The notes: generated from the sequence alone by a model not told the origin. A stretch of 54,105 bases of DNA from Candidatus Woesebacteria bacterium (GCA_050123235.1 JASFHL010000008.1:1-54105); one strand, 5' to 3'; shown: positions 1-39,674, counted from the stretch's first letter. Numbers and translations are program-made.

Positions 1-396
1 AACAATCTTATTAGCTTCGTTTGGTCTTTGAGGAAAAGGAAGATTGGTATTGGTAGCGGCTTGGCTTGCACTTTGATCTGTTTGAGCCATAGTTTGACTT
101 TGTCCTTTAATAAAAGCAATTTGCCCAGTCTGAGCTTGTTTAACTGCCTCTTGTTCAGTGCTTTGTTGTTGGGTTTTATCAGTACTAAGCAAAGTTGTTT
201 CTGGGATAGGGATGTTTGTGGCTACTTGGCTAGTATCTACGGCTTTTTGATCTATCTGCGTTGATCCTTGTCCAGTTTGAGTAGTTGTTATTGCCCCTTT
301 GGGTTTCATTCTAATAATAATAGAAGCACCTCCGTCTTCCATGTCAGCGATATCACTAGAGATGTCAAAAAGGTTTGAAAACTTTCGATTAGCCAT
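1..396 (-). CDS. hypothetical protein, N-terminal 132 codons only (C-terminus lies beyond the window start)
   Basis: Absent from the ORF track because it runs off the edge. ATG at 396-394 on the minus strand. The frame is open to nt 1, with no tta/cta/tca triplets in that frame. Translation is MANRKFSNLFDISSDIADMEDGG...LPFPQRPNEANKIV. The last residues repeat the LPPKPTEANKIVG linker/domain junction of the adjacent PrgI-like protein. Confidence 0.6.
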   Translation of the reverse strand, partial: MANRKFSNLFDISSDIADMEDGGASIIIRMKPKGAITTTQTGQGSTQIDQKAVDTSQVATNIPIPETTLLSTDKTQQQSTEQEAVKQAQTGQIAFIKGQSQTMAQTDQSASQAATNTNLPFPQRPNEANKIV

Positions 397-484
397 AAGT
401 TCATCTTACTAGATTTTTGCCAATATAATCAAGATAGGGAAAGATTAATTGATTTTTAAAAAAACAAAAAATTATTTAACTTTT

Positions 485-1567
485 TTAATTTAGGCTTTTA
501 ATAACGATTGGATCTATAATTTTCCCTTTAGCAACTACTTTTTGAGTTGGGAATTGAAGTTGATCTTTTTCAACTTTGATTAAATAATCATCATTCTCTA
601 GAGGAGTTGAAGTGAAGAAATGACCCAAACTATTACTTTTAATTGCTCTGACGATCTCACCTTCAGAATTTTCTATTTCAATAATAGCATCAGCAATAAT
701 TTCATTGTTGGGATTAACTATGGCTCCGACAATTTTATTAGCCTCCGTTGGCTTGGGAGGAAGCGATAAATTGCTTGTTAGATGTTTGTTATTTGTTAGT
801 TGAGTATTTCCTTTATCTGTAGCAACTTTGGCAGCTGCTACTTGATTAGCCAAAGGAGGAAAAATTTGTTTTTCTTGCTTGCTAGGGGATTGAGTTGTTA
901 CTGAGATTGTATTTTGATTTACTGGCTGACTTGTTGTTATTGTGTCTGTTTGATTAGTATAAGCAGTATTGTTGTCAGTGTTATTTATAACAGCTTGATT
1001 CATTTCAGGAGCCTTTAAAGTTCTGACTCTGGTTTTAAGTTGAGGTTTTTGTTTCATCTTTTTTACATTGCTATAGTTAACTTGAACTGTTTGAAATGAA
1101 GCCATAATATTATTTACTTTTTCTTGGTCGGTATCTTCCCAATCTTGAATAGAGCTTTGTTTATTGATCGAGCTAAGATACTCTTTGATTCTTTGTCTTC
1201 TTGCTGGAGTAAGATCAATCACAGCTTCTTGCTCTTTGATGATTTTTTTTCGTTCGTAGAGAAAAGGAGTTGGAACAAAAGCTTCTCTTTTCCAAAAAAA
1301 CTGGGTGGGTTTATATAAAACTTTTAAAAAGGTGGTTAACCAGTGATCCAAAGGTCGTTCTTCAATTGGTAAAAAAGCTAAAGCCAGACCTATTACAAAG
1401 CTAAGTAACATTAAAGGATATTTAATGAAGGGCAGAAGATTGGTGGCATAGAAAATAATTGCGCCAATTACTCCAAGAAAAATTTCAGCAAATTGCTTGA
1501 TCGTCATGCTGCCGATGATGTGAAATCTATAGCCAGTGATGTCTTGTGGAATTGGATGTTCGCGCAT
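485..1567 (-). CDS. PrgI-family (VirB3-like) T4SS membrane protein with an extra C-terminal beta-sandwich-like domain
   Basis: The N-terminus HPIPQDITGYRFHIIGSMTIKQFAEIFLGVIGAIIFY plus a second hydrophobic helix matches the PrgI-family pattern. A Q/T/N-rich linker follows. The C-terminal ~85 aa (KIVGAIVNPNNEIIADAIIEIENSEGEIVRAIKSNSLGHFF...DYLIKV) resembles a carboxypeptidase-regulatory-like fold. Confidence 0.7.
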   Translation of the reverse strand: MREHPIPQDITGYRFHIIGSMTIKQFAEIFLGVIGAIIFYATNLLPFIKYPLMLLSFVIGLALAFLPIEERPLDHWLTTFLKVLYKPTQFFWKREAFVPTPFLYERKKIIKEQEAVIDLTPARRQRIKEYLSSINKQSSIQDWEDTDQEKVNNIMASFQTVQVNYSNVKKMKQKPQLKTRVRTLKAPEMNQAVINNTDNNTAYTNQTDTITTSQPVNQNTISVTTQSPSKQEKQIFPPLANQVAAAKVATDKGNTQLTNNKHLTSNLSLPPKPTEANKIVGAIVNPNNEIIADAIIEIENSEGEIVRAIKSNSLGHFFTSTPLENDDYLIKVEKDQLQFPTQKVVAKGKIIDPIVIKSLN

Positions 1568-1668
1568 TAGATTAATTCCATTTTAACAGTAATCAGGAAG
1601 AATTGACCAGAGGGAGATCTTTTTGAGCTCTGAGCTTGGAGAATATAATTGGTTTTTTAGGCTTGGTT

Positions 1669-2631
1669 TTATTTGGCAGAAGTTTGGACAGCCGGAGTGA
1701 TTAATTCTGCTCTTAATTCATCCCCTTTGTTATTAATCAGAGTACCTTTGAATCGATAAAAAGGATAAGCAATTTTTAACTCATCATCAATCCTATATTC
1801 CAAAGAAACTTGGGTAAGCATTCCTGAAGCAATTTCTTCCAAAGAAAGAGAGCCGTGTCCTTCGTAATAAGCAAAAACAATTGAGGCTTTATTTTGATTA
1901 ATGTTTTCAATTGCTTGGTCAATACTAATAGATTTAGCTTTAGCAGAAATAGTGAGATTAACAAAAAAGGGTTGAAAAGTGAGTTTTTGAATTTGATAGT
2001 TTGAATTTAACATGACTTTAAAGGGAAAATCTTCACTATGAGCATAAAAAACAGGAATACCATTCAATTTATAAGTGAAAGGAATTTCCATGATTTCTGC
2101 ATCTGCCTCACTGCTTTCTTCTAGGTGAAAGCCAGCTTTAAAAAAAGAAATTTCTTTTTCTAAAGCAACTAAGCCTAGATTTGGAAAAAAATTATTAAGT
2201 AAAGTGCTGGCAGTACTAATAGCTTGTTCTTTGTTAAGAGTTTTACCAATGGGGGCTTCTTGATTGCTAACCAGAACATATTGTTGATTGTTTTTTGATA
2301 AAGAATATAAAGATCCTTGCCAAATGTTGTCAGTGCCTTCTAAGAGAGTGAGTGAGAACTGATCAGTTAATTGTTCTTCCACATAACTGGCTGTGGTTTC
2401 TGTATTCTGTGCCTGGGCCAAAGCTAGTTCAGCAGGTACGGCAAGCTGGCTGCGATCACCATTAAAAATAATGTTACTAAGTTTGCTAGTTGAGCCATAT
2501 CGATTGGTGCTAATAAATTCAGTTTCTGGCACTTTTTTATAGCCGGGAGTGAGAATTCTAATAATTACAGAGACGATTGTCACGATCGCTGCAATTACTA
2601 GTAAGTAGATAAACCATTTTGTATTTTTCAT
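1669..2631 (-). CDS. bitopic membrane protein, unknown function (possible VirB8/PrgL-position protein)
   Basis: One N-terminal TM helix (WFIYLLVIAAIVTIVSVIIRIL) followed by a ~285-aa extracytoplasmic part. No motif recognised. The functional guess rests only on its position between the hydrolase and the PrgI-like gene. Confidence 0.6.
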   Translation of the reverse strand: MKNTKWFIYLLVIAAIVTIVSVIIRILTPGYKKVPETEFISTNRYGSTSKLSNIIFNGDRSQLAVPAELALAQAQNTETTASYVEEQLTDQFSLTLLEGTDNIWQGSLYSLSKNNQQYVLVSNQEAPIGKTLNKEQAISTASTLLNNFFPNLGLVALEKEISFFKAGFHLEESSEADAEIMEIPFTYKLNGIPVFYAHSEDFPFKVMLNSNYQIQKLTFQPFFVNLTISAKAKSISIDQAIENINQNKASIVFAYYEGHGSLSLEEIASGMLTQVSLEYRIDDELKIAYPFYRFKGTLINNKGDELRAELITPAVQTSAK

Positions 2632-2651
2632 ATAATTAATATTATTTCTTC

Positions 2652-2817
2652 TTTAAAATATAAATATAGTTAATTATAAAGTCGCTCGCGGCAACGTTTT
2701 TTCTTTTTTTAAATTGCCGGGCTCACTCGGTGAAGCTCGGTAGTATATAAAGTGTCAATCTGAGCCTAGCCAGACCTCGCTTCAACGCTCCATAATTAGC
2801 TATATTTATATTTTAAA
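2652..2817 (+). ncRNA. candidate structured RNA (or ssDNA) element, copy 1 of 3
   Basis: A 26-nt arm at 2652-2677 pairs with 2792-2817: 25 Watson-Crick pairs plus T2670 opposite G2799. Core boxes are TGAAGCTC at 2731-2738 and TCGCTTCAA at 2777-2785, 38 nt apart. The element fills almost the whole 2632-2827 spacer. The strand call rests only on the G-U argument. Confidence 0.55.
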
Positions 2818-2827
2818 AAAAATAATA

Positions 2828-5800
2828 CTAATTAACTTCCCCAAAACAACTCCTTACCACCTCGTTTATATTAATAAATTCCCCATCTGGCATTAGTTTA
2901 GCAAGATCAGATTTTGTAGGGAAGTCGCTGCTTCTTGCCCCAGGATGAGCATAAAATGATCCACCTTTGCCCATTTCAAAGTGTAAGTGTGGCCCAGTTG
3001 ATCTGCCAGTGCTACCAACTCTGCCTATTATTTCACCTTCCATTACCTGTTTACAACCAGTTTCAACTTTTTGACTGAGGTGGGCAAACATAAATAAGCG
3101 ATCTTTGCCATCAATGTTTGTTTTAAGTATCAGGTGCATGCCATAACCATTGGGATCATCTGGTTTTGAACAAAGCTCACCTGCAAAAGGAGCAAAAACA
3201 GGAGTCCCCATAGGAGCAGCAATATCATAAGCGTCAGCTCCATTTCCACTGTCACTGATATGTGAAAAACTTCCAAAAGGTAATTGTTTAACAATTCCTG
3301 AAGTAGGCCAACAGCCCAAGCCTTGAGGGCATTCTCCAATGCAAACAACTTCACCAGTGATAGCGTCATCAGAGCCACTTTCATCTGCATTTTCATAAGC
3401 AAATTCAATGGTAAATTTGTTTCTGACACTAGCATGATTGTAATCTTCATCAAAAATTTCAGTGTAACTTAAGCGCAATTCTTGGCCTGGCTCTAAGACA
3501 GTACTTTGTTCAATATTATTAAAGTCATCAAAACTACGAATTTTATCTTCAATATCAGGGGTTTCTCCAGAATACATTTCTTCGTTGTGGTGGACTCTGA
3601 GCTCATCCTCGATATCAGTGATGGTGATTTTGTAATTTTCTTTTGGTTTGATAACAATGCTGTAACGAGCTTCAAAAGGGAAATTGGGATTTTCACAACG
3701 GTTGTCTTGACAACCTAAGCCTAAATCAACAGTTTTTTCAACAAATAAATACTGTGATTCTTTAAATTCACTAGTCAAAGCTGTTAAAGGGGCAGTATAT
3801 GGCAAATCAACCAAAAAGGCAGATTGAATAGCAAGCATGGTAAAAACAGTGCCCCCTATCATAATACCAACAGTGGTTAATGGTGCTGAAACTCCTACAT
3901 GACTAAAAAAAGCTTTCCAAGTGGCAATTTTTGTTACAGCAGGGGCTTTGAGTATCATTTCGGGAGTCCAAGGAGTTGTGGCTGGGGTAGTCGCTTGGGT
4001 TAAACTGGCTTTTCCAGGAACTTTGCCAACTTTGATGGTGGTGGCAGTTCTAGTGGGAACAGCTCTAGTTTTGGCAGTGGCATGTTTTCCTAGCAATTTG
4101 TGTTGAAGATCCGCTCCTTTATTAGCGCCCATGATAAAGCCAGCAGTAGCTCCAGCTGGTCCACCTGTAATAAATCCGACTGTACCTAAAGCTAATCCTC
4201 CCAAGAAGCCAAGTAAAGTAGTAGCAGCAGCAATGGTTTTAATAATGATTAAAGTAGTGGCTGCCGCAGCGCCAGCAATAATTTTGCCAATTACTTTTTC
4301 TGTTTTTTCAATAACCCTGCCAAGACCTGGAATGCGACTGGCAATTGCTTTAAACTTTACATAAGCTTCACCAGCTCCTGCCGCAACTAAATTTGCTCCA
4401 ACTCTAATGGCTGTTTCTCCGAGTTTTCCATAGGCTTTATCAGCTCCGCTTTTTATAGCAGACTTAGCTTTATTCAAACAGGAATTAGCATTTTGTCCAA
4501 AATTAGAAGCGTCTTGGTTTAGGGCGGCTAGTGCAGTTGGGCTTTCTCCAACGCCGCTATTATTTAAAGTAGTTTGAGTTTGTTCTCCATAAACTGAAAA
4601 GTCAGGATGGATAGTTTCTGCATCTACCTGTACGGCTACTGTTTGTAAATAAAAAACAGTTCTTTCTTGAACAGTCAGTTTTTGCCAGTAGCCTTCAATA
4701 GCAGCACTGCTATTTTCATCTCCAGCGGCTTGTAATTCCGAGTAAGAACTAGCACAGCGTTGTACATAAATAGCAGGGTTATGATTAATTTGGCCGTAAG
4801 CCTGCATCATGGCATCAGTCTGTTTACCAACACGCTCTGCAAATTCATCTGGGCTTGCATCTTCGTCTATTTGAAGGTGATCAATGCCGGCTCGGCCGTC
4901 GATTTTCATCACTCCAGCTCTAAAAATTTTCCAATAATCTTTTAAAAAGGGGACTAATTGACGAATTTGGTCATCTGTTAGTTCTACACCTAGTAAAGAT
5001 TGCAATTTAGATCTGATTTCTTCATTGCTGCCTTTGAGCATGCTGCTTAAAACTCGGGGAGATTGACCACTGAGCACAGCAGCTTCTATTCTGAGCGCAA
5101 TAGTGCGGGCAGTGGCAGCATCGCCAACAATAGCAGTCGCCTGGCTGATAAAGGAGTTGGTATAACTTTGACTGTCAAAACCAGGAAGCTCAGCCAGTCC
5201 TTCAAAAAAATCAGCATTACCATGAGCAAAAGACTTAAGGTGTTCTTCTAGAGTAGTCTCATTTCTAATTTTTTTAGGATCAACCTGAGCATTTCTAATT
5301 AAAGGAATTACTCCTGGGATTTGTAAAAATAGTTCATGCCCCTGTCTGGAAAGTTGATATCTTAAAGTAAGACTGTCTGGATCAGTTAAGTTAGCTAACT
5401 TCATCAATTCTTCTTTGCTTAAACCTAGAATCAAACCATTTATAATCTCAAAGGATCTTTCTCTTAAAGCAGCATAAACAGCTGGATCAAGTTGCTCCTT
5501 GTTAGTGCCTAAATAGGCCAGTGTAGATTCCAAAACCAAATCAGCATAGGCGCTAGTGAGATAGCGGGGATTAAAATAACGCGGGTCGATTAGTCCTGAA
5601 GGTTCTTCTGCGGGTGGTGGTGGGGGAGGAGGAACTGGGACTTCAGCTTCTTTTTCGACTTCTGGCGGCCCTTCCTCAGTTTCTTCTTTCTTTTTTTCTT
5701 TTTTAGCTCTTTTTTCTTCACCCTCTTCGGGTTCCTCTTCCTCTGGCTCTTCCTTTTTTTCAGGGATTTCGCTGATTAAACTTAAGTAAACCTGATAAAG

Positions 5801-6292
5801 AGCTTGGGCTACGTTTTGAATAATCGCTGCTTTTACCTGTTTTGTGACAGCTGTTCTGTCTACTTGAGAGAGAGTCTGCCCGGCTGTTCTGTCTACTTGA
5901 GAGAGAGTCTGCCCGGCAGTGATTTTGATAGTGCCAGTGTTTATTTCTCCCATGGCTGCTTCAATTGCTCGGCGATTGTCTGCTCTTTTGGTTTTTTCTT
6001 CGTCATCAGCGTTTGGGGGAATATCATCATTTAGTTCAGTGATGGCAGCTGCGATTTGCCTGAGAAAGACCACTAAGTCTGCCATGCAAATATTTTCATT
6101 TGGGTCAAAAGCAGGCACTGGCTGGAAAGAAAAAGTGAAATTTTGTCCTTTATCAAAACCTCTCAGGTCTGCTGTAATTTCTAGATCAGCTTTGACTTCG
6201 TTTTCAGCAAGAAAGGCTAGCAGATCTGGCCAATTAAGAAAATCAGCAGCTAGTTGTTTTAAAGTATATGGTTTAGTTGCTTCATCAGCCAT
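2828..6292 (-). CDS. large membrane-anchored M23 family metallopeptidase (T4SS-associated cell-wall hydrolase candidate)
   Basis: 1154 aa. The ~650-aa N-terminal part has no signal peptide and contains an E/K/P-rich linker (PVPPPPPPPAEEP). A Gly/Ala-rich TM region follows (IIAGAAAATTLIIIKTIAAATTLLGFLGGLALGTVGFITGG; VGIMIGGTVFTMLAIQSAFLV). The C-terminus carries the M23 signature GRVGSTGRSTGPHLHFEMGKGG. Confidence 0.85.
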   Translation of the reverse strand: MADEATKPYTLKQLAADFLNWPDLLAFLAENEVKADLEITADLRGFDKGQNFTFSFQPVPAFDPNENICMADLVVFLRQIAAAITELNDDIPPNADDEEKTKRADNRRAIEAAMGEINTGTIKITAGQTLSQVDRTAGQTLSQVDRTAVTKQVKAAIIQNVAQALYQVYLSLISEIPEKKEEPEEEEPEEGEEKRAKKEKKKEETEEGPPEVEKEAEVPVPPPPPPPAEEPSGLIDPRYFNPRYLTSAYADLVLESTLAYLGTNKEQLDPAVYAALRERSFEIINGLILGLSKEELMKLANLTDPDSLTLRYQLSRQGHELFLQIPGVIPLIRNAQVDPKKIRNETTLEEHLKSFAHGNADFFEGLAELPGFDSQSYTNSFISQATAIVGDAATARTIALRIEAAVLSGQSPRVLSSMLKGSNEEIRSKLQSLLGVELTDDQIRQLVPFLKDYWKIFRAGVMKIDGRAGIDHLQIDEDASPDEFAERVGKQTDAMMQAYGQINHNPAIYVQRCASSYSELQAAGDENSSAAIEGYWQKLTVQERTVFYLQTVAVQVDAETIHPDFSVYGEQTQTTLNNSGVGESPTALAALNQDASNFGQNANSCLNKAKSAIKSGADKAYGKLGETAIRVGANLVAAGAGEAYVKFKAIASRIPGLGRVIEKTEKVIGKIIAGAAAATTLIIIKTIAAATTLLGFLGGLALGTVGFITGGPAGATAGFIMGANKGADLQHKLLGKHATAKTRAVPTRTATTIKVGKVPGKASLTQATTPATTPWTPEMILKAPAVTKIATWKAFFSHVGVSAPLTTVGIMIGGTVFTMLAIQSAFLVDLPYTAPLTALTSEFKESQYLFVEKTVDLGLGCQDNRCENPNFPFEARYSIVIKPKENYKITITDIEDELRVHHNEEMYSGETPDIEDKIRSFDDFNNIEQSTVLEPGQELRLSYTEIFDEDYNHASVRNKFTIEFAYENADESGSDDAITGEVVCIGECPQGLGCWPTSGIVKQLPFGSFSHISDSGNGADAYDIAAPMGTPVFAPFAGELCSKPDDPNGYGMHLILKTNIDGKDRLFMFAHLSQKVETGCKQVMEGEIIGRVGSTGRSTGPHLHFEMGKGGSFYAHPGARSSDFPTKSDLAKLMPDGEFININEVVRSCFGEVN
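5851..5916. repeat. perfect 33-bp tandem duplication inside the M23 gene
   Basis: ctgttctgtctacttgagagagagtctgcccgg occurs at 5851-5883 and again at 5884-5916. It is in frame and encodes TAGQTLSQVDR twice. Confidence 0.95.
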
Positions 6293-6347
6293 GCTTTTAA
6301 TTATACTGCAAAGCCAAGGAAGAAGGGAATTGAGGTTTTTTAAATTC

Positions 6348-6403
6348 TTGACAGAGAGCTTAATTTGTAATAAAATATTATTTATATGAATTTATTACAA
6401 ATT
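6348..6403 (+). promoter_or_regulatory. sigma70-like promoter plus inverted-repeat operator of the AbrB/PIN operon (near-leaderless)
   Basis: TTGACA at 6348-6353, a 17-nt spacer, then TAAAAT at 6371-6376. The ATG is at 6386. The 13-nt inverted repeat aatttgtaataaa (6362-6374) / tttattacaaatt (6391-6403) brackets the -10 box and the start codon. Confidence 0.6.
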
Positions 6404-6682
6404 TCTTATACAAATTGTAAAGGTCAACTGGTTATTCCTAAGGCTTTTAGGGATAAATTAGGGATCAATAAAAATAAAGCTTTAATAATTAACTTGCAGG
6501 GTAATAGTATTTTGATTTCACCAATAGAAGAAGTAATTAGTAAGGCAGATCAAGAATCATCATATTTGGATGTGCTTAAAAAAACACAAGGAACTTGGGG
6601 AAAAGATGATTGGTCTGCTCAAAGAAAAAAAAAGAGACAATTAGAATTAAAAGCTTCTAAAACCAGAAAGAAACAATGGTGA
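6386..6682 (+). CDS. AbrB/MazE/SpoVT-family antitoxin
   Basis: The N-terminal GQLVIPKAFRDKLGI looped-hinge-helix motif is present. It overlaps the downstream PIN gene by 7 nt (ATGGTGA). Confidence 0.8.
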   Translation: MNLLQISYTNCKGQLVIPKAFRDKLGINKNKALIINLQGNSILISPIEEVISKADQESSYLDVLKKTQGTWGKDDWSAQRKKKRQLELKASKTRKKQW

Positions 6683-7065
6683 TTTTTGATACTAATATTA
6701 TTATTGATCACCTCAGAATTTCTGGGAAAAAGAAAAGTTTATTATTACAGTTTGCAGAAAAATCTCCAAAAGAAAGTTTTGCTATATCAATGTTAACGGT
6801 GCAAGAACTCTATGAAGGACAAAGCACTCGTGATAGCGATAAAGAAGCAGCTTTATTAGCCACCATTAGTCCACTTAAGATTCTTACTTATAATTATGAA
6901 ATTGCTAAATTGGCAGGCAAGATTGCTAGAGATTTAAAAAGATCAATTGAACTAGCTGATGCAGCCATTGCGGCTACGGTAATAATGAATAATGCTGAGC
7001 TCTTGACTTTGAATGCGAAAGATTTTAGAGGAATTAAAGGTTTAGAATTGGTGAATAGGAGTTAA
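6676..7065 (+). CDS. vapC: PIN-domain toxin (VapC-like)
   Basis: The N-terminal VIFDTNIIIDHL contains the first acidic residue. Later E and D residues appear in the PIN pattern (QELYEG; LADAAIAATV; LLTLNAKDF). It is translationally coupled to the antitoxin. Confidence 0.85.
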   Translation: MVIFDTNIIIDHLRISGKKKSLLLQFAEKSPKESFAISMLTVQELYEGQSTRDSDKEAALLATISPLKILTYNYEIAKLAGKIARDLKRSIELADAAIAATVIMNNAELLTLNAKDFRGIKGLELVNRS

Positions 7066-7281
7066 AATACAAAGTTTAAAAAAGTTATATTAGTATATAA
7101 TAAGAACTAATAAAAACAGATACAAGGAGTCAAATGTCTGGTAGATAACGAACTGAAGCAAAGAATAATAACTTACCTTGCGAGCACTGATAGCACACTG
7201 CGTAGTTTTTGGGAAAAGAAATTCAACGTAAAACCAGCTTCAATTGAGCAAATAATTAGTGAAGGGATATTACCCGCTTGG

Positions 7282-7647
7282 GTGATTGCTAATGAGCCGT
7301 TCTGGGCTTACCTACTCCTCCAATTAGAGCATCAAGAATTTGGAAATGAAATAATGGGAATCGCCTTATCACTTGCTTATAACCCAGATTTTATCAGTGG
7401 ATCGGCAGCAGCGTACCATAGAAACATTTTTAATGCTGCAAGAGAAATTGTTGTAAGAAAAAGAGCCGCAGCTAGTCAAGTTTGGCGTAGGGTAGGTCGA
7501 GAAGATGATCAAAAGCGAACTGAGAATTTATTAAGACAAATTGCTCAGCTATTAGCTGATCAAGAAATGGACTCTTATGATAAATATCAACAAGTTAGCA
7601 TGAGAGTAACAGCTTTAAAGATGATTATTATTCCTGGACAGAGATAA
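7282..7647 (+). CDS. hypothetical protein (probably longer at the N-terminus)
   Basis: GTG-started ORF from the track. The same frame is open back to 7114, and a strong SD sits at 7124-7129 (see finding). Confidence 0.5.
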   Translation: MIANEPFWAYLLLQLEHQEFGNEIMGIALSLAYNPDFISGSAAAYHRNIFNAAREIVVRKRAAASQVWRRVGREDDQKRTENLLRQIAQLLADQEMDSYDKYQQVSMRVTALKMIIIPGQR

Positions 7648-7683
7648 AGGAATTTTTAAATTCTGGCCTTAGTTATTTCTAAT

Positions 7684-8349
7684 TTAGTTTGCTAATTTAA
7701 TCACTCCCCATCTAGGTAAATGAGCACGACTCCATAGCCCACTGCCAAAATTAATGATCATCACTCTTTCACCTCTTGCTCTCAAGTCATATTCAATATG
7801 ACGATCTCTACTTTCTGCAACAGCAGTCAAACTTTGGAAATGTTCTGGCCTGAGTTGCCACATCACTAAATTGGGGTTTTGATCACTGCCTTCAATCACC
7901 GGGATTTCTCCCTCTGCCACTACTGCAGCCAAAACCCTATCTTCAGTAAAAGGCAGCATATCTCTAATTCCTCCACCGGTGGCATTGTATTTAAAAAATT
8001 GAGTCTGATAATCTCCTCGCCAGTGGACAAGGGCTGTTACTTGTCTAGTGCGGGTGCTGCCTGGTTCTTGATAAGTCACGGTTAGTGTTTCTGCTTCTCC
8101 TTCGGGGTCAGCAAAGTCTATTCTTTGACTATGGGCTTTTGTTAGTTCTACTGCCAAAAGAGAACCTGTTAAGGCAACTCCATATTTTACAGTATTTTTT
8201 AAAAATTCGCGGCGGCTAGGATTTGCTACAAAATCCCTATCTTGATCGTTGCCTCTTAAAAGTTCTCGAATGTTTTTGAAGATATTGGGAATATTGGAGA
8301 GCTTTATTTTAAAAGCTTCTTTGTTTAAACGGCTACGAACTCTTTCCAT
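7684..8349 (-). CDS. hypothetical exported protein with a twin-arginine-like signal
   Basis: SRREFLK is followed by the hydrophobic stretch NTVKYGVALTGSLLAV and then KAHS. No domain recognised in the mature part. Confidence 0.6.
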   Translation of the reverse strand: MERVRSRLNKEAFKIKLSNIPNIFKNIRELLRGNDQDRDFVANPSRREFLKNTVKYGVALTGSLLAVELTKAHSQRIDFADPEGEAETLTVTYQEPGSTRTRQVTALVHWRGDYQTQFFKYNATGGGIRDMLPFTEDRVLAAVVAEGEIPVIEGSDQNPNLVMWQLRPEHFQSLTAVAESRDRHIEYDLRARGERVMIINFGSGLWSRAHLPRWGVIKLAN

Positions 8350-8408
8350 TGTTTTAGCTTACACTAGTTGCTTCTACTTGAGAAGTGAAAAAAGCATGTT
8401 CTAAATAA

Positions 8409-10202: not shown

Positions 10203-10355
10203 TAAAAAACTCCTCGTGTTGAGGAGCATGGGGCTTTTCTACTGGATGTTTTAAAATCTTAAACATCAGCCCGATGCTCGTCGGATTCTTCTTTGCTTTT
10301 GGCAAAGAATCATCTCTTGTGTCGGACTGATTTGTTGAGTAAATAGCTATGTTTT

Positions 10356-10534
10356 GCTAATTCTAAAAACTAAATATTAAGATAGACGAGACCTTGAAGC
10401 GAAGCATTAAACCTGTTGTTAGATAGTCAGTGTTGATGCTGAGCTTCAGAAGAGAGCATTGTTTATTAACAAAACAAAAAAATATCGATGCGAACGTGTC
10501 TCGGATAGCTTAATATTTAGTTTTTAGAATTAGC
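10356..10534 (-). ncRNA. candidate structured RNA (or ssDNA) element, copy 2 of 3 (opposite orientation)
   Basis: Perfect 26/26 arms at 10356-10381 and 10509-10534, followed by a further imperfect 11-bp extension. On the plus strand the reverse-complemented boxes read ttgaagcga at 10394-10402 and gagcttca at 10441-10448. They are 38 nt apart. Confidence 0.55.
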
Positions 10535-10819
10535 TTCATAGTTTTTGCTAACAAAAACACCGTTGCGGCACAGTGAAGGATTTTCACCTTCTTCCAAAAG
10601 ATATTTATTTTGTTAAAGTTATGCTTTTACTTAGCGATAACTGTATCGGTTGTAGCATGAAAGTGAGGTGGGGGGCAAGGGGAATAAAAGGCATGAGTTT
10701 ATTTACTGATATTTGGTAGAAAAAAACAATTAAAATTTAATCAAAAGCTTGTTTCGTGATTTTAATTTTTTTAAAACTGGGATAAAAACATAAAAAATTA
10801 CCTAGATTGTTTTTTTTTG

Positions 10820-15827: not shown

Positions 15828-17603
15828 TTAGGCATAGCCACTGGTGTCACCTTTGGCTTGAGCTGAGCCTTCGGAAACTCCACTAGTGCCTGTCGTTGTA
15901 GCAGCAGCAGGAGGTGGAGGTGGCGTTCCTGCCGGTTGAGCTGGCGTACGGCCAAGTTTATCGGCAGCTTTTTGAATAACGCCTTGAGCTGCTGGTCCTA
16001 AAGCAGTCCCTACATATCCCCAATTCTGGATAGTTTGACCAAGTGCACTGAGTTTGTGTGCTCCTTTATATAAAGGCGGAATAACCACAGGCGCTGCAGC
16101 TCCTATTGGGGCACCAATTGCTCCATATTTCAGAGCTTGTCTCCAGCCGCCAGCTTGATCTCCAATTTTACCTGTTTTACCTAGATAACCACCTACTAAA
16201 GCACCACCTAGCATACCTCCTCCTGTAGCAGCAGTATAGCCAGCTATTTTCTTCGTCGGCGCAATTCCTCTCTTAGCATTTTGTACTGCGGTATTAAGCA
16301 ACTCTCCGATTACACCCTCTTTAGCACCAAAGGCTTCTTTGATTTTTTTGATAGTTTCTGGGATAGCCAAGATGATGCCAATACCTACCAAAGTGGTGAC
16401 AGCTCCACCGGTGCCTTGACCGATCATATATGGTGGCATAAAGCCGCCACTGGCGATTTCATTTTCAGTAATGGTTTTATACATAATTAGGAGCAGTAAA
16501 ACTGCTGGCCAAGCGGCTAGGTTACCAACTAGGCTTTTGAGCCAGCCCACAAACACATTTTTGCCAGGTAGAGCGCCCATCATTAAGACAATGGGAGCGA
16601 AAGCAATACTAATAATAACAGCAATATAAGTTTTGAGTAATTCAAAGAAAAGTTTAAAGACTCCAATTAAAATCGCAATCGAGACAATCACGCCGACAGT
16701 AATCCCACTGACCCAGCTTAAAATATCTCCCAAGACACCCAAACTACTAGTTGTTTCATGAACAAAACTTTCAACAGCATTGTTAACAGAACCAAAAGCA
16801 GAACCTTCTTCCCATGGTAAGACTAAGCTAGCTCCTAGTTGTAAAAAGTTTTTATTAATCAAATCAACATCGCCTCCAAAAACTCCAATCATTAAATACA
16901 TAGAGAGATACATGATGTCAATTAATAGACCCGCGATGGCATAAGAAAAAGTTACAAAGATTAAGGCAATAATAATCTGAGGAATAGCTTGTTGGGCGGT
17001 GACTACAGTTTGGCCGCTGATTTTATGACGGAACATAATCATAAAACCAATTACCAAAAAGATGAGTACAAAAAATAAATAGGAAATATTTCTAAACACT
17101 TTCCAGGTTTCTAATACTGGATCAAGTGCAGCAAAGCCTAAACCTTGAGCATAGGCCTGAGGAACAATTTTAGCATTATAAAATAAGTCTGCCACATAAG
17201 TTTGGGCACTGGCTGGAGGGTTATACATCATGGCAATAGCTTTACCCATGCCGCCGATGGCGCCACCCCCACCAAATTTTTTTTGAACAATTTGGCGTTC
17301 ACTTTCAGTTAACCCAGCTGCTTCTACAGAGCCACTATCACCACAGCCTGTTACATAACAATTAGTGACGACTAATAAATTCCCTCCTAATTGTTGAGTG
17401 AGCTTTCCATTACTAGCTTCTTCGTCAGCAACAGATTTGAGTAGCTCATTTTTTTCTGATTGAGCATCTGAGGCACTTTGTCCAAAAGCTTCTTTGATTG
17501 CTTCCAGTAGCCCTGCATGAGCTGGTTTAGCAGCGAAAAATAAAGATAAAGTGGAAATCAAAGTAAAAATGGTGAGAGTCAAGGCAAGCTTGCATTTTGC
17601 CAT
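15828..17603 (-). CDS. polytopic membrane protein, VirB6/TrbL/PrgH-like candidate
   Basis: Signal peptide (MAKCKLALTLTIFTLISTLSLFFAAKPAHA). At least 6 hydrophobic helices lie in the central 300 aa. The Gly-rich C-terminal part ends in PPPPPAAATTT. The VirB6-like call rests on architecture only. Confidence 0.5.
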   Translation of the reverse strand: MAKCKLALTLTIFTLISTLSLFFAAKPAHAGLLEAIKEAFGQSASDAQSEKNELLKSVADEEASNGKLTQQLGGNLLVVTNCYVTGCGDSGSVEAAGLTESERQIVQKKFGGGGAIGGMGKAIAMMYNPPASAQTYVADLFYNAKIVPQAYAQGLGFAALDPVLETWKVFRNISYLFFVLIFLVIGFMIMFRHKISGQTVVTAQQAIPQIIIALIFVTFSYAIAGLLIDIMYLSMYLMIGVFGGDVDLINKNFLQLGASLVLPWEEGSAFGSVNNAVESFVHETTSSLGVLGDILSWVSGITVGVIVSIAILIGVFKLFFELLKTYIAVIISIAFAPIVLMMGALPGKNVFVGWLKSLVGNLAAWPAVLLLLIMYKTITENEIASGGFMPPYMIGQGTGGAVTTLVGIGIILAIPETIKKIKEAFGAKEGVIGELLNTAVQNAKRGIAPTKKIAGYTAATGGGMLGGALVGGYLGKTGKIGDQAGGWRQALKYGAIGAPIGAAAPVVIPPLYKGAHKLSALGQTIQNWGYVGTALGPAAQGVIQKAADKLGRTPAQPAGTPPPPPAAATTTGTSGVSEGSAQAKGDTSGYA

Positions 17604-19152: not shown

Positions 19153-22100
19153 CTAACCTCCATCTATTTCTTTCAACTTCTGGCCACAATATTTGTCACT
19201 GCCAGTAGACCAAGCTCCCCAGTTTTGACCACCATTAGAGAGGTTGAGCGCATAGTTAATATTATTTGTAGGATCTTGCATTTTGTCGGCACAGTCATCT
19301 ACTAAGGATTGTTCAACTAAGATATTACAGCTAGGAGGCGTCCAGTTATAGTCAAAGTAGTTGTCGCATTCATGAGCAAGTAGGTTAATTTGGAAAAGCC
19401 CGACACTATAATCAACTGACTTGCCAGTGACACAACCATCATTGACAGTGCTAGCATTGCCACCACTTTCGGCATTACAAATGATTGAGGCTTTCTGAGC
19501 GCGTTTGCGAATGGTGTTTGCTTCTAATTGTTCTCCGTGGTCTGCTGCCCATTTTTCAACGTGATTGATCATATTGTCTACACTGCAAGGACTGCCAGCT
19601 GGAGCTTCTTGGCAGCGAGTAGCTTGATCATCTTCGCTCCAGCCTAGATCTTCATTTCTGCCATTATAAGGAGTGCTGCCAAAGCCAATAGTTTCGCTTT
19701 TTCCAGAACAACGGCCAAGGAACATATCCTCAGTTCTTTCGCAAGATTTTACATATTCATAAGCTTTACTTCCAAATTCTCTTAAACCTGTTTGAATTTT
19801 ACGTAACATCCAGCCTAATCTAGCACCGGGCATGTACAGTCCTTTATGATCTTGTTTCATTTTGACACCAAATTTTCTCTCTTCACAGTGTTCAACTCCG
19901 GATTCATCAGTCCAGCAACGGCGATCAAATTCAATGCTATCGCCACCCTCAGCTCCAAATTTAGCATCAATTACAGGTAAGTTTTCTGGTACTCCAGGTG
20001 CATCTTCCCAATCAGCAATACGGTTGGCCTCAACCATGTTTTCAAAGTCTTCTGCTGCAAAAAAGGCTTGTAGACTTTTTTCAATCACTTTCAGATTAGC
20101 ACCAATTGGCGCCACAATATGAATTTGGACTTCGGTTCTTTCTTTTTGGCTAGGCCCAGTGACTTTAATTTTAAAATCAAAATCCACTTTGTTGTGTGGA
20201 GGAGCGCCCAGAGCATCGTAACCTGACCAAAGACCTTCTTCAAATTGGTTGGTTTGGGGAACACTTTCACGGCCATCAGGTACAAAAGCAGGAGCAGCAA
20301 TATCTCTGGCCTGTTCAGCAAAGTAAAAGTGTCGTTCACAATTATTACTTTCAACCATAATATTTTGACCATTTCCTTGGCTAAAGTGAATGCCTTTAGG
20401 ATTAGAACCATTAATAATGTCAACTAAAACCCTGGCAAGAGGTAATGCTTCAGGAGCTCCATCGCATTGAGGAGTACCACTACAGATCACCTTAACTTCG
20501 CTTCTAGCTATTGGATCATCAGAAGCTTCTAAGATTTGCATTCTTTTAATTTCTGCTAGTAAGGCTTCACGTCTAGCCATTTCTTCACCTTGGATTTGCT
20601 CACTGTCTTCCTTTGAGCGCAACGTGCTAGCACTAATATCCGCTGTATCACTCCAAGGCATGCTTTGAGCTTTATTGGTTGTGAAATCTGGGATTTTGAA
20701 AGCTACTACCAAGGGGATATGTAAAGGGGCATCCTTGACTTGAATTTTAGCGCCGCCCTCGCCGTCACCTGTAGTATGTTTATATAAAAAACTGAATATG
20801 TCATATTTATCACCCTCAGGGTCGTTTTTGGGTTGTTGCAAAACTGAGATAACCAAAAAAGCAGTCCGGTAAACACGTTCCAGGTTGAGAGACATATTAC
20901 CCATGGCATCTTGTACTTCTCTAAATTGATCTTTATCAATTCCTAGTTCTGGGTTGTATGGTTGGCTAAGAACACTACAGGCAGTACGATCAAAGCCAAG
21001 CTCCCCACCTACTCTGTCATTGATTTCTTGGGCTAAACCTTCATATTTCATGAGCATGCTCTCAGAAGGATCATGACTGTAGATTAAGAAATCAGTTTCA
21101 GGAATTTCTTGATAAAGGGCACAGGACTTTGGCTCATCTAGCATCTCGCAAAGCTCTTTAGCTGTTCGAAGATTGGATACTTTTTTAAAACATTTATCTC
21201 CTAGGCTAAGTAAAAAGTTAGCTGCTCCATTACTGCGTACGTCTTTTTCTTCTTCAAGGTTAAGTGCCCCAAAGAATCCTTCAAAGGAACTATTTTTTGC
21301 AGTATCAGTCTCCAACTCACTGCCTCTAAATAGAGCAACTTTAGCATCTGCCATGTTGGCTTTTTGTTCGACTGTGCCACTAAAGAGAGGATTAATTCCT
21401 AGATAAACCTCACCAATTGGTGGCTGAGGATGGATTTCAAAATATTTTTGTACTTCACCAACAAACTTACTGCTAATTTCTAACTCTGGGCTAGGGCAGT
21501 AGGTTTGATAGCCTTGATCTTTAACTAGACTGAAAATGGCATAGTCTCTAGGTTTTTCCGGATCATAATCAGCAGCAATGACTTGTTCTTTTTCAATCAT
21601 ATTTAGAGGGTAAGTAATAAATTGATCATGATCTCTCTCTTTCAAGGCAGATAAACGATCAAGTGCTTCACAGTTTTGAGGATCAATCCGTTGACCTTTA
21701 CCGGTGTAGAGAGTGCCATGTACATAAAGTAGCCACTCACCATGATCTTGGAAATTTTCACAGACATTGCGCACCAAAGGAGTAATGTGAGAAGCTCCAG
21801 TCTGAGAGCCTTGTGTTTCGATGAATTGGATTACGTTATCTAAATTAGTATCAGGCGGAGAATCACCACCGGGGGAGAGAGAGAATTCGCTTAGGATTAA
21901 ATTTTTTCCTTCAGTGCCAGTCATGCCAACTTGATGGGTATCTGTAGCATTAGGATCACAGCTGTCAGCGCTTTGGCCGATACAGCCGTAGGCATTGGCG
22001 GTGCGGATGTTGGCAGCATTATAATCACCAGCTAAACCAGTGCTGCTTAAAAAAGCATCAGCAGGATAATCATAGTTATACCAATCCAAGGCTGCAGGTG

Positions 22101-22590
22101 AAATGTTGCCCATCCCTGCCACAGCTCGATAATTATTGGCATAAGTGTTGGGATCAGCACACTCTCTTGCCTGGTTATTAACCTCATTGCCAAAGGTGAT
22201 CAAAACACTAGCACCAAATTTTTCTTTGACAATATTAACAATATTGATGCTATCTTGAGTATTACCATCGCAGACACGATTGATTCTCACAATTGGAAAA
22301 AAGCCATGACGTTGTACAGCGGCTGCTAGTCTGCCTACGTCTTCGGCAGAGGTATTGATTTCTACCATCAAAGTGACTGGAAAACCACTCCCAGCTCCGT
22401 TGGGAGCAAGGATGCCATCCATGATAGAAATTTGGTGATTGATGTCGCCGTAACCTAAGTGACTGCCAATCATAGAAGCAGCAGTTGATTTGACGGGGAG
22501 AGAAATAGCTAGAGAAAAAAACAGAGTAACAACAAAAACAATAACAATAGTTTTAACTAAGTCTAATTTGGACACATAGCTATTATACAA
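19153..22590 (-). CDS. secreted 1145-aa protein: N-terminal TIM-barrel glycosidase-like region and C-terminal lysozyme/SLT-like domain
   Basis: N-terminal TM/signal helix (IVIVFVVTLFFSLAISLPV). ITFGNEVNN is a clan GH-A style NE motif. The C-terminal NAESGGN...YSVGLFQINL...NWGAWS matches the lytic-transglycosylase/lysozyme-like pattern (E-S ... GLxQI). Confidence 0.7.
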   Translation of the reverse strand: MYNSYVSKLDLVKTIVIVFVVTLFFSLAISLPVKSTAASMIGSHLGYGDINHQISIMDGILAPNGAGSGFPVTLMVEINTSAEDVGRLAAAVQRHGFFPIVRINRVCDGNTQDSINIVNIVKEKFGASVLITFGNEVNNQARECADPNTYANNYRAVAGMGNISPAALDWYNYDYPADAFLSSTGLAGDYNAANIRTANAYGCIGQSADSCDPNATDTHQVGMTGTEGKNLILSEFSLSPGGDSPPDTNLDNVIQFIETQGSQTGASHITPLVRNVCENFQDHGEWLLYVHGTLYTGKGQRIDPQNCEALDRLSALKERDHDQFITYPLNMIEKEQVIAADYDPEKPRDYAIFSLVKDQGYQTYCPSPELEISSKFVGEVQKYFEIHPQPPIGEVYLGINPLFSGTVEQKANMADAKVALFRGSELETDTAKNSSFEGFFGALNLEEEKDVRSNGAANFLLSLGDKCFKKVSNLRTAKELCEMLDEPKSCALYQEIPETDFLIYSHDPSESMLMKYEGLAQEINDRVGGELGFDRTACSVLSQPYNPELGIDKDQFREVQDAMGNMSLNLERVYRTAFLVISVLQQPKNDPEGDKYDIFSFLYKHTTGDGEGGAKIQVKDAPLHIPLVVAFKIPDFTTNKAQSMPWSDTADISASTLRSKEDSEQIQGEEMARREALLAEIKRMQILEASDDPIARSEVKVICSGTPQCDGAPEALPLARVLVDIINGSNPKGIHFSQGNGQNIMVESNNCERHFYFAEQARDIAAPAFVPDGRESVPQTNQFEEGLWSGYDALGAPPHNKVDFDFKIKVTGPSQKERTEVQIHIVAPIGANLKVIEKSLQAFFAAEDFENMVEANRIADWEDAPGVPENLPVIDAKFGAEGGDSIEFDRRCWTDESGVEHCEERKFGVKMKQDHKGLYMPGARLGWMLRKIQTGLREFGSKAYEYVKSCERTEDMFLGRCSGKSETIGFGSTPYNGRNEDLGWSEDDQATRCQEAPAGSPCSVDNMINHVEKWAADHGEQLEANTIRKRAQKASIICNAESGGNASTVNDGCVTGKSVDYSVGLFQINLLAHECDNYFDYNWTPPSCNILVEQSLVDDCADKMQDPTNNINYALNLSNGGQNWGAWSTGSDKYCGQKLKEIDGG

Positions 22591-37439: not shown

Positions 37440-39674
37440 CTATGAAGATCCTTTTTTCCGTGCATATCTTTCTCTGCTAACCTTAATCACTTTTTCTCGA
37501 TTGAGATTGTGACTTTTTGCCAGGGCTAGAGTGTGAGCTGGGAATGGTTTGGAAATAATATCATTGATAGTCAATTTATTAATAATCTGATATCTTCCCA
37601 GAGAAACAAGGTCTTCTTGAGTGTATTGTTCAGCATATTCTTTAGCAAAGACAGCGCTATCATCAGCCCCCATCACAAAACTAATAATGCTACCACAGTT
37701 ACCAAAGATAGCTTTTTGTACTTCTTCTGGAATTTGCGCTACATATTGATTGGCTAGGGTAATATTAAGGCGGTATTTTCTGGCTTCAGATAGGATTTTA
37801 TTAAAAGATTGAGTGGCAAAATTTTGAAACTCATCCACATAAAGGTAGAAATCTTTTCTTTTTTCTTCTGCCATATCGACTCGAGACATGGCTGCTAGTT
37901 GAATTTTGGTAATCAACATCGCACCTAGTAGAGTGGCATTATCCTCGCCTAAACGTCCTTGAGATAGATTAGCTATCAGAATTTTGCCTTGGTTCATGAT
38001 TTCTTCAATTCTAAAAGAGCTAGTCTGAGCATTGACTACATTTCTGACCATTGGTGAAGAAACAAACTGACCAACTTTATTGAGAATAGGAGCAATGGCT
38101 TCTGTTCTTTGTCTATCTGGCATTTGGTTAAACTCATCAACCCAGAAGCTTTTCAAAATAGGGTCATCAAGGGTGCTAACCACTTTTTTGCGATATTTAT
38201 GACTAGTGAGTAATTCCAAAACATTGGATAAGCGCGAATTGTCACTTTTGAGTAAAGTTAATAGCGTGTTGCGCAGAATGTATTCTAGTCTTGGACCCCA
38301 AGAGTAAAAGTAAAGTTTTTGGAAAATAGAAACAATGCCAGAGGCAATCAGTTCACGATGCACAATGTCTTTGCCTTCAAAGAGATTGATTTGCACTGTT
38401 CTTTCTGGATCAGCCGGATTGAAATAAACCACATCGTTGATGCGTCGAGAGGGGATGAAATCAAGTAAGGTTTCTGCCAAATCACCATGCGGGTCAACAA
38501 TGCAGATGCCTTCGTCATTTTTGAGGTCATTGATTGCCATATTTGCCAAAAGAGTAGATTTGCCAGTCCCAGTTTTACCAATTACATAAACATGGCGTCT
38601 TCTATCTGTTTTAAACAAACCATATTTAACTTTAGCATTTTTAAAAACAGTTTCGGCAAAAACATTGGTGTTTTTTTTAAGGGCAGGCTCTGTATTCCTG
38701 GTAATGATCGGTAAATTTTCTGGTGGTTCTCCTAGTAGATTTTTTCCCCAAGAAATATTAGGAATCACAGACAGTTGTTTGTTGGGCAGGTGATAAAGGG
38801 TGGCCAGTTCTTCTAGACTGAGGTGCATAGTACTCGAGCGGAAAAAAGAGCGTTTTTTCATTGTTTGCAAAAAGTTGTTTGGGAAAAGATATGTTTTGTT
38901 GAGGATAATAGTGTTGCTTTCACTCTGGGACATGGAACTGAAAGCAGTGGCAATATTTTCTAAGATTAATTCAGCTCTGTCTGGGCTATCAGCAGAAACA
39001 GCAATCTTAATCCCAACTTTTAAAGCCTGGCTTTTGAGTTTTTTTTCAATTAAGGCTTTTTGAGGATGATGACTAGTTTGGCTGATTTGTTCTGCCAGAT
39101 TATCGACGGCTGTATTTCTTTTTTTAAATTGGCTAATTTTACGCAGCGCAGCTTGTCTCCAGAAATCAAAATCTCGACTAATATTAAATTGGATCACAAC
39201 TTGGTCTCTGGGTTGGCTTTGAGAAAGAGTAGAAAGCAGCGTAACCAGTGGGTCTACATCTTGGAAATCTTGGTATGTTTTGAGAGGGAAGTATTCAGCA
39301 TTCTGTAATTTCAGAGATCCTAGTTTTAAATAGTTTTTTCCATCAAAGTGAGGATCCGAGCTTTCAATAGAATCAATTAAAAAATCCATAGGATCACTAC
39401 TGAGGTCTAGTTCATTGATCAAAATTTCAGGATAGCTGGCAGTTAAGCCAGCCTTGAGGTAATCAACAAGTCTGCTGGGCATATAGCAAAGGAAGAAAAT
39501 AGTTTGGTTTTGAACTACGAACTCAAAGCTAAGTTTTTCATGAATTCCTATCAGGCGATAAAAGATATTATTTTTCAGGTGGGGAATAGTAGCAAAGAGC
39601 TGAACTGCTGTTTCTGGAGTATGTTCAGCATCTCGTCCGGTTCGGAGTTCAAGCAGGCTGTGGTTACTAGGCAT
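37440..39674 (-). CDS. T4SS-type ATPase of the FtsK/HerA/VirB4/VirD4 class with ~350-aa N-terminal domain
   Basis: Walker A VIGKTGTGKSTLL, DPHGDL, and a Walker B-like FYLYVDEFQNFAT. No TM helix is evident at the N-terminus. Confidence 0.8.
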   Translation of the reverse strand: MPSNHSLLELRTGRDAEHTPETAVQLFATIPHLKNNIFYRLIGIHEKLSFEFVVQNQTIFFLCYMPSRLVDYLKAGLTASYPEILINELDLSSDPMDFLIDSIESSDPHFDGKNYLKLGSLKLQNAEYFPLKTYQDFQDVDPLVTLLSTLSQSQPRDQVVIQFNISRDFDFWRQAALRKISQFKKRNTAVDNLAEQISQTSHHPQKALIEKKLKSQALKVGIKIAVSADSPDRAELILENIATAFSSMSQSESNTIILNKTYLFPNNFLQTMKKRSFFRSSTMHLSLEELATLYHLPNKQLSVIPNISWGKNLLGEPPENLPIITRNTEPALKKNTNVFAETVFKNAKVKYGLFKTDRRRHVYVIGKTGTGKSTLLANMAINDLKNDEGICIVDPHGDLAETLLDFIPSRRINDVVYFNPADPERTVQINLFEGKDIVHRELIASGIVSIFQKLYFYSWGPRLEYILRNTLLTLLKSDNSRLSNVLELLTSHKYRKKVVSTLDDPILKSFWVDEFNQMPDRQRTEAIAPILNKVGQFVSSPMVRNVVNAQTSSFRIEEIMNQGKILIANLSQGRLGEDNATLLGAMLITKIQLAAMSRVDMAEEKRKDFYLYVDEFQNFATQSFNKILSEARKYRLNITLANQYVAQIPEEVQKAIFGNCGSIISFVMGADDSAVFAKEYAEQYTQEDLVSLGRYQIINKLTINDIISKPFPAHTLALAKSHNLNREKVIKVSRERYARKKGSS

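Follow-up and report, generated by a model that had tools for sequence, protein, structure and literature searches.

A putative hydrolase-specific partner protein in an apparent type IV secretion operon near the replication origin of a Microgenomatia-type Patescibacterium

Four genes at the end of a contig

The DNA analyzed here (the window, 54,105 nt) corresponds to positions 1 to 54105 of contig C8 (JASFHL010000008.1) in the genome of a Candidatus Woesebacteria bacterium (GCA_050123235.1), an assembly of 1.13 Mb in 18 contigs that is 98.5% complete. We place the genome in Microgenomatia; its relatives carry the names Pacebacteria and Woesebacteria. Our subject is a group of four minus-strand genes at positions 1 to 6292, which we attribute to a type IV secretion system (T4SS). 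In the direction of transcription, they encode a 1154-aa giant membrane protein (2828..6292), a VirB1-type cell-wall hydrolase judging from its Peptidase_M23 domain and its positional homologues; a 320-aa bitopic protein (1669..2631), here called P320 and characterized by an AlphaFold2 model and a family profile; a 360-aa long-form PrgI/VirB3 protein (485..1567), recognized by Pfam, a structural model, and a fold search; and the 5' part of a lineage-specific chimeric gene (1..396), of which 132 of 212 codons are present before it runs off the left edge of the window, where the contig ends. The open reading frame (ORF) calls agree with the four genes listed in an earlier note made from this sequence, and the note's view that a PrgI-family gene lies beside a membrane-anchored hydrolase in a T4SS module gains weight from matches to PF12666 and Peptidase_M23 above the cut-offs. 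A Gram-positive-type (MPF-FATA-like) T4SS with PrgI/VirB3 and a membrane-anchored cell-wall hydrolase is supported.

The giant protein matches Peptidase_M23 (PF01551) with 63.2 bits (cut-off, 28.7) over aa 1021 to 1111 (nt 2960-3232), has M23-type matches only in NCBIfam, and aligns in this domain with solved M23 chains of the PDB at E values down to 3e-12. It falls into three regions, all on the minus strand. The predicted cytoplasmic N-terminal region (aa 1-665; 4298..6292) is hypervariable and acidic (net charge, -31), with neither a signal peptide nor a transmembrane (TM) helix by hydropathy. It is followed by a conserved membrane region (aa 666-826; 3815..4297) made up of a Gly-zipper, Gly/Ala-rich TM hairpin (about aa 666-718) and, after a loop rich in Lys and Arg, one more TM helix, the third (about aa 803-826); in this region, a GGxxGGPxG block is kept in the family alignment, and by a conserved, Cys-containing ectodomain with M23 at its end (aa 827-1154; 2831..3814). 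The hairpin and the peptidase had been noticed before, whereas the third helix had gone unmentioned; it is needed for the extracellular position that was assigned to the M23 domain. The membrane region was also considered as a VirB6-like element and rejected, as it has three TM helices only and a separate 7-TM candidate exists at 15828-17603.

Positional homologues of the giant occupy the same place in four related loci (L010, L011, L014, and L016) and in others. Conservation with these equivalents is confined to aa 655-1150 (TM region, Cys-containing ectodomain, and M23), while the N-terminal region shows an identity of about 0.08 to 0.15 per 50-aa block, and aa 230-660, used as a word-based query against 5.8 billion proteins, returned only the protein itself. 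A perfect 33-nt tandem duplication at 5850-5915 encodes TAGQTLSQVDR twice and is therefore a recent in-frame duplication within the hypervariable region. It was the only signal above background in promoter, terminator, and repeat scans of positions 1 to 7200, and no Rfam family, the cobalamin riboswitch included, was matched in the whole window. Within the M23 domain, Asp1023, the His of an FAHL motif, and the HxH of an HLHFE motif are conserved in the alignment with solved enzymes.

P320 has a single N-terminal TM helix (aa 4-27) by hydropathy and in the model, and is thus bitopic, as the earlier note had it. Its model is confident (pLDDT, 89.8; pTM, 0.82) and shows the TM helix followed by three alpha+beta modules. 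In a profile search of 1.84 billion representatives, the family comprises 764 clusters of about 310 to 360 aa with full-length matches. P320 has no match in Pfam or NCBIfam, and a Pfam scan of 21 family members gave noise only, without a recurring signal. A Foldseek search of the model against the PDB returned 0 matches at E <= 1e-3 (best E, 0.06; TM score, about 0.15), with no VirB8-like entry among the 50 best matches listed; nothing significant was found in BFVD, and the family profile found nothing among PDB sequences. By the same method, an 83-residue domain was recovered from the multidomain PrgI model, and the lack of a VirB8, PrgL, or TraM match for P320 is therefore meaningful. Thus, P320 resembles VirB8/PrgL/TraM proteins in topology and in gene position, beside a hydrolase and VirB3, but not in having an NTF2-like domain, and the proposal that it is VirB8/NTF2-like found no support in Pfam, NCBIfam, the PDB profile search, or the fold search.

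The PrgI family (PF12666) is matched by aa 5-88 of the 360-aa protein with 29.2 bits in hmmscan and 32.6 bits in the genome search (cut-off, 27), and CarboxypepD_reg is matched by aa 279-343 with 21.6 bits, under the cut-off of 32.3. An AlphaFold model built with 43 homologues shows a hairpin of two helices (aa 23-41 and 46-65; nt 1304-1555, minus strand) at a pLDDT of about 95, a disordered Q/T/N-rich linker (aa 183-264; nt 776-1021, minus strand), and a seven-stranded, transthyretin-like beta-sandwich (aa 280-357; nt 497-733, minus strand), again at about 95. The beta-sandwich has 24 PDB matches at E <= 1e-3, with TM scores up to 0.77 (3e8v), among them the transthyretin-like domains of carboxypeptidases D, N, and M, the NTE of SusC, and CnaB domains. 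The linker and the additional C-terminal fold that had been read from the sequence are thus both seen in the model and in the fold search. The beta-sandwich very probably lies in the cytoplasm because the hairpin brings the chain back to its starting side, because 13 Lys/Arg residues fall within the 65 residues after the second TM helix, and because neither a TM helix nor a signal peptide is found in the 212-aa paralogue. The long architecture is shared by at least 445 protein clusters, mostly of 360 to 400 aa, many of whose members are annotated with both PF12666 and PF13620, and the fusion is therefore standard in the lineage. Since M23 giants are likewise the norm at this locus position, the "unusual fusions" of the earlier note are in fact ordinary features of these loci. 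A second, weak PrgI-like match in the genome (13.9 bits, under the cut-off) lies in a 245-aa ORF (contig C3:8049-8234, minus strand).

The junction LPFPQRPNEANKIV / LPPKPTEANKIVG is common to the PrgI-like protein and the product of the truncated gene. A second contig of this organism, 144.7 kb long, has the truncated gene called at 212 aa with a weak CarboxypepD_reg match, in agreement with the suggestion that gene 1-396 carries a paralogous C-terminal module on another N terminus; the fold model of PrgI also bears this out. Residues 7 to 33 of the 212-aa protein match the conserved N-terminal motif of TraC-like proteins, and a hidden Markov model (HMM) of 17 TraC-like N termini found this gene as its sole significant match among the 7,377 ORFs of the genome (E, 0.0018; next E, 2). 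Residues 55 to 132 resemble PrgI linkers and run into the beta-sandwich junction. No gene was found between PrgI and the TraC-like gene in any related locus examined. The gene thus looks like a lineage-specific duplication chimera of a TraC-like N-terminal motif with a PrgI-type linker and beta-sandwich. The simplest origin would be an old tandem duplication that began in the PrgI linker and reached the start of the TraC-like gene, with a junction that fused this start to the PrgI tail; the repeat scan of 1-7200 found no DNA-level repeat as a trace of it.

Probable continuation of the operon toward VirB4 and dnaA

The only strong P-loop_TraG match in the genome is a 718-aa ATPase whose gene lies 140 bp short of the right-hand end of contig C4. 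It matches P-loop_TraG (92.5 bits), AAA_10 (52.8 bits), DUF87, and, weakly, the CagE/VirB N-terminal domain, and it is 71 to 81% identical to the VirB4 genes of related loci. With this high identity to Patescibacteria relatives, it may belong to the Patescibacteria clade of VirB4. It is followed by dnaA, dnaN, rnpA, and yidC, and by genes for a KH-domain protein and an RNase H. The virB4 gene (region C4:105699-108111) looks like an orphan only because the contig stops 140 bp upstream, where a partial low-complexity ORF fills the contig end.

Two comparisons bear on what lies between the contigs. The 144.7-kb contig of the same organism, from JGI, carries the genes for PrgI (360 aa), the 212-aa protein, and a 324-aa TraC-like protein (PF26593), with a partial gene at its end. 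In relatives, the order is giant/M23 protein, protein of about 320 aa, PrgI, TraC-like protein, VirB4, dnaA, and dnaN, then rnpA and yidC; loci with this order include L011, L014, L016, L020, L022, and L025. The TraC-like gene comes next after PrgI in all relatives and after the 212-aa gene in the JGI contig. As the identical gene order recurs in many independent contigs, the arrangement is no chance juxtaposition; in more than 15 related contigs, the run leads by way of a TraC/TrsD-like gene to VirB4 and dnaA.

From this synteny, the left end of C8 probably continues into the right end of C4 across an assembly gap, in which the TraC/TrsD-like gene would lie. We consider it highly probable that the minus-strand order is giant M23 hydrolase, 320-aa partner, long PrgI/VirB3, 212-aa chimera, TraC/TrsD-like protein, VirB4, and dnaA. 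The VirB4 gene that was to be sought to the left of the window is thus placed by synteny at the end of C4, next to dnaA.

Joint exchange of the hydrolase and its partner

For a comparison of giants with their neighbors, loci were chosen solely by their PrgI gene. An M23 giant is followed by a P320 gene in the window and in 11 related loci, of which one, L015, has a divergent partner that still matches the P320 HMM (E, 5e-36). In the five loci whose giants lack M23 and are of the HExxH type, the giant is in every case followed by a different single-TM family of about 200 aa, whose members match one another at E values of 1e-17 to 1e-80. There are no mixed cases in this PrgI-selected set (11 M23 loci and 5 without M23). 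The two partner families share only the TM anchor, with an RILTP motif, and the partner gene lies directly after the giant gene or overlaps it. HExxH metalloprotease-like ectodomains were seen in the giants of ten related loci, alone, together with M23, or with an SLT-like ESG motif; in one such HExxH giant (L012), Pfam models found no match.

The distribution of the two partner families was surveyed in a single, evenly drawn set of 301 genomes from the class (E <= 1e-5). Both occur together in one genome, against about two expected by chance, so that mutual exclusivity alone is uninformative, and we relied on interspersion within taxa and on checks of the loci. The counts of P320 and of the ~200-aa type are, respectively, 7 and 1 in family f1, 1 and 1 in f2, 3 and 1 in f23, 1 and 3 in f33, 4 and 4 in f35, and 1 and 1 in f50, and both occur once in the single genus g70. 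The contrast was confirmed at the locus in five genomes (G155, G045, G207, G253, and G058). In G155, from the family to which the present genome belongs, an HExxH giant is followed by a 195-aa partner, PrgI, a TraC-like protein, VirB4, and dnaA, and the VirB4 of G155 is 81% identical to the one described here. Both types occur downstream of VirB4 in family f2, where identity between the two VirB4 genes is 78%. In genus g70, a giant with M23 and HExxH and a P320 partner stands against a giant with an SLT-like domain and HExxH and a ~200-aa partner. The PrgI tree requires two or more changes to account for the type without M23, and on it an M23 locus (L018) and an HExxH locus (L023) are sisters (support, 97/89). 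The rule that M23 goes with P320 argues for a direct functional coupling of the two ectodomains and against a generic scaffold. A role as a targeting adaptor, like that of PrgL toward PrgK, is conceivable for the partner, and so is one as an inhibitor or immunity factor.

Taken together, positions 1 to 6292 are in all likelihood the promoter-proximal half of a conserved, chromosomal, origin-proximal and non-conjugative T4SS operon of a Microgenomatia-type Patescibacterium, in which P320 is a hydrolase-specific partner. By what is known of homologues, PrgI/VirB3 would anchor the VirB4 ATPase at the membrane and hold its beta-sandwich on the cytoplasmic side, on a disordered leash of about 80 to 100 residues. 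The giant would act as a VirB1/PrgK-type hydrolase, anchored by its three TM helices, whose M23 ectodomain opens peptidoglycan for the apparatus outside the cell. P320, with its conserved TM anchor in the membrane beside the machine, may bind the M23 ectodomain through its own ectodomain and so target or restrain it; it would then be functionally like PrgL binding PrgK, with an unrelated fold. By analogy with Southlakia epibionticum, the non-conjugative machine would most likely mediate an essential macromolecular exchange with a host cell. In that organism, the T4SS (SEML1_0006-0019) is essential for epibiotic growth, and protein export or another role has been proposed (PMC10633639, Wang et al. 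2023); tubular structures at the parasite-host interface may be T4SS pili (2026 preprint, 10.64898/2026.06.21.733656).

Several points weigh against this reading. A hypervariable N-terminal part of about 650 aa is odd for a purely structural cytoplasmic domain of the giant. The canonical first zinc-binding His of M23 (HxxxD) is Ala1019 in the giant, so that the domain might have an altered catalysis or a regulatory function, like the LytM domain of PrgK; activity is plausible because the Asp, the catalytic His, and the HxH are present and a His 7 to 20 residues upstream of the canonical first position is kept in the giant family. The contact between P320 and M23 is one that we infer. Either partner family was detected in only about 16% of the sampled genomes. 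As for the continuation into C4, the TraC-like gene is missing from this assembly, and a search of the genome for an overlap of the C8 start with any contig end found none, so that the join rests on synteny.

The rival explanations differ mainly in what they make of the pair. P320 might be the missing VirB8/PrgL homologue, a generic bitopic scaffold whose NTF2-like ectodomain has diverged beyond sequence detection. Its place between hydrolase and PrgI, like that of PrgL in pCF10, and its bitopic topology fit this, as does the near absence of detectable VirB8 reported for Patescibacteria (PMC12102498). We consider it improbable, however, since a confident model without a PDB match, in a search able to find an 83-residue domain, is joined by a negative PDB-sequence profile search and the lack of a recurring Pfam signal in 21 members, and since replacement by an unrelated family wherever the giant lacks M23 is unexpected for a generic scaffold. 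Still less probable is the idea that the giant and P320 are general cell-wall or division factors that merely adjoin T4SS genes. M23/LytM proteins commonly act in cell division, and the window has, at 43090-44214, a gene for another M23 protein, an ordinary one of the LysM-M23 kind; yet the giant-partner pair stays with PrgI, TraC, and VirB4 even where the order has changed, as in family f2, where it lies downstream of VirB4, and it is codirectional and tightly spaced or overlapping with its neighbors. A better case can be made for a polymorphic enzyme-immunity cassette, in which a surface-tethered M23, HExxH, or SLT-like domain attacks the wall of the host bacterium where the two cells meet and the membrane-anchored partner guards the epibiont's own peptidoglycan. 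Enzyme domain and partner family do switch jointly at one locus while VirB4 remains 78 to 81% identical, the genes abut or overlap, the ectodomain is modular (M23 alone, M23 with HExxH, or SLT-like with HExxH), and the N-terminal region is hypervariable. The enzyme is held in the producer by three TM helices, however, with no obvious release or delivery signal, and co-switching is equally expected of any tight pair, such as an enzyme and its targeting adaptor, of which PrgK-PrgL is an example (10.1101/2024.02.15.580431); we regard the cassette as a possible, though on balance doubtful, explanation.

A conventional conjugative element (an integrative and conjugative element [ICE] or integrated plasmid), with relaxase and integrase outside the window, would explain the likeness of the gene set to Gram-positive conjugation modules and the coupling-protein-like ATPase at 37440-39674. 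The four relaxase families covered, PF03432, PF01076, PF02486, and PF03389, have no match anywhere in the genome (98.5% complete; the classes MOB-F, H, C, B, and M lay outside the search), which for these families extends to the whole genome the absence of a relaxase that the earlier note had reported for the window. No integrase is present among the scanned ORFs, composition does not change abruptly at the module boundary, rho, radA, and obg are interspersed in the region, and the locus is fixed beside dnaA, dnaN, rnpA, and yidC in many genomes of several families. We therefore consider such an element extremely unlikely. The non-conjugative role suggested earlier agrees with this conserved chromosomal setting and has already been published (PMC10633639, PMC12102498).

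A more far-reaching reading, which we rate as rather unlikely, is that the locus has two features without a counterpart in characterized T4SSs. One may be a swappable cassette that pairs a wall-degrading ectodomain tethered to the surface (of M23, HExxH, or SLT-like type) with a matching single-pass partner and that is exchanged between close relatives like a polymorphic toxin-immunity pair; if so, it would adjust the range of host walls open to breaching by the epibiont, whose own wall is protected. The other may be the leashed cytoplasmic beta-sandwich of PrgI, present in this lineage also as the free 212-aa copy, as a receptor for substrates or adaptors, which could then stand in for the missing dedicated coupling protein.

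Apart from these readings, the kind of system was already described in 2023-2025, and the present locus is one more example of it. What is new is a hydrolase-specific partner family that matches no solved structure, the way in which enzyme and partner switch jointly, and what looks like a duplication chimera. The gain at the system level is small, but three testable points are sharpened for Microgenomatia, in what is, to our knowledge, the only kind of T4SS known to be essential for the growth of its bearer: that the VirB8 position is taken by a protein that does not resemble VirB8 and is specific to the type of the adjoining hydrolase; that hydrolase ectodomain and partner are exchanged as a unit between close relatives; and that the extra domain of PrgI is very probably cytoplasmic. 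All three are targets for complex structure prediction and biochemistry.

The extended locus and its relation to known systems

Further T4SS-type genes lie in the window, interspersed with the housekeeping genes rho, radA, and obg. A 591-aa protein (15828..17603, minus strand), which has about 7 TM helices besides a signal peptide and ends in a Gly-rich tail, is a candidate divergent VirB6-type channel subunit; its homologues (41 to 57% identity) lie upstream of the giant in four related loci (L010, L011, L014, and L016) and beside the giant in two others (L046 and L047). It has no Pfam match, and a highly diverged VirB6 is plausible. VirB6 is reported to be scarce in Microgenomatia. A 1145-aa secreted protein (19153..22590, minus strand) with a C-terminal SLT_3 lysozyme-like domain (42.9 bits) is a second cell-wall enzyme, syntenic in L011. 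Two VirB2-like T4SS_pilin genes (PF18895) encode proteins of 150 aa (23800-24252, minus strand; 28.9 bits) and 325 aa (24255-25232, minus strand; 24.4 bits, under the cut-off of 26.6), and the 744-aa coupling-protein-like ATPase (37440..39674, minus strand; TrwB, TraG-D_C, and DUF87) lies far from VirB4. The LysM-M23 gene mentioned above is the second M23 gene of the window.

Other genes are of more local occurrence. A MazE/AbrB-type antitoxin and PIN toxin pair (6386-7065, plus strand) is inserted divergently just upstream of the giant gene, at a spot that holds other genes in relatives, and a lone second PIN gene lies at 35898-36284 (plus strand). Between the giant and the VirB6 candidate (7282-15775), large soluble orphan proteins of 221, 606, 416, and 1251 aa are encoded, of which only the 606-aa protein has positional homologues, weak ones, in three loci (L012, L015, and L029); the block may possibly hold lineage-specific substrates or accessory proteins. 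At 47930-54076 (minus strand), a 2048-aa tail-fiber-like surface protein with a Peptidase_S74 (endosialidase chaperone) domain at aa 1420-1474 is encoded beside a TPR protein.

As an enzyme, the giant shares the conserved Asp, catalytic His, and HxH with M23/LytM endopeptidases such as LytM, lysostaphin, ShyA, and DipM, but its first zinc-binding His is off the canonical position, and its domain is fused to a three-TM anchor and a variable cytoplasmic region of 650 aa.

The T4SSs of the Patescibacteria clade are MPF-FATA related, chromosomal, and often located by dnaA, with PrgI, TrsD, VirB4, and pilins and usually no relaxase (PMC12102498, Quinonero-Coronel et al. 2025). The present locus agrees with them in its AAA_10/P-loop_TraG VirB4, PrgI/VirB3, TrsD/TraC-like protein, and VirB2-like pilins, in its chromosomal position by dnaA, dnaN, and rnpA, in the lack of a relaxase, in the position of its coupling-protein-like gene far from virB4, and in the peptidase and lysozyme genes associated with it. 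In that article, only 22.6% of Microgenomatia VirB3 homologues are given as near virB4, while the two are adjacent here (by synteny) and in the sampled relatives. The CarboxypepD_reg extension of PrgI is unmentioned there (0 occurrences), no mention of the P320 family or of its pairing with the enzyme was found in the passages retrieved, and the 212-aa chimeric gene is extra with respect to the published systems.

The resemblance to the Prg/Pcf system of Enterococcus faecalis pCF10, in which hydrolase, PrgL, and PrgI genes are neighbors, holds for the PrgI-family hairpin protein, for the membrane-anchored hydrolase, and for the bitopic protein encoded beside it, but not for a VirB8-like fold. 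PrgK of pCF10 has an intracellular N-terminal domain and extracellular wall-enzyme domains, including a (degenerate) LytM/M23 domain (10.1101/2024.02.15.580431; PMC12857230), and PrgL binds PrgK (10.1101/2024.02.15.580431). The M23 type and the cytoplasmic fusion, two of the differences that had been drawn between this locus and pCF10, are therefore in part resemblances. Unlike in pCF10, there is no relaxase or adhesin here, SLT and CHAP domains are missing from the hydrolase, no NTF2/VirB8-like fold is seen in the bitopic partner, PrgI is extended by about 270 aa, and pilins are present; and whereas pCF10 is plasmid-borne, the locus described here is chromosomal and vertically conserved.

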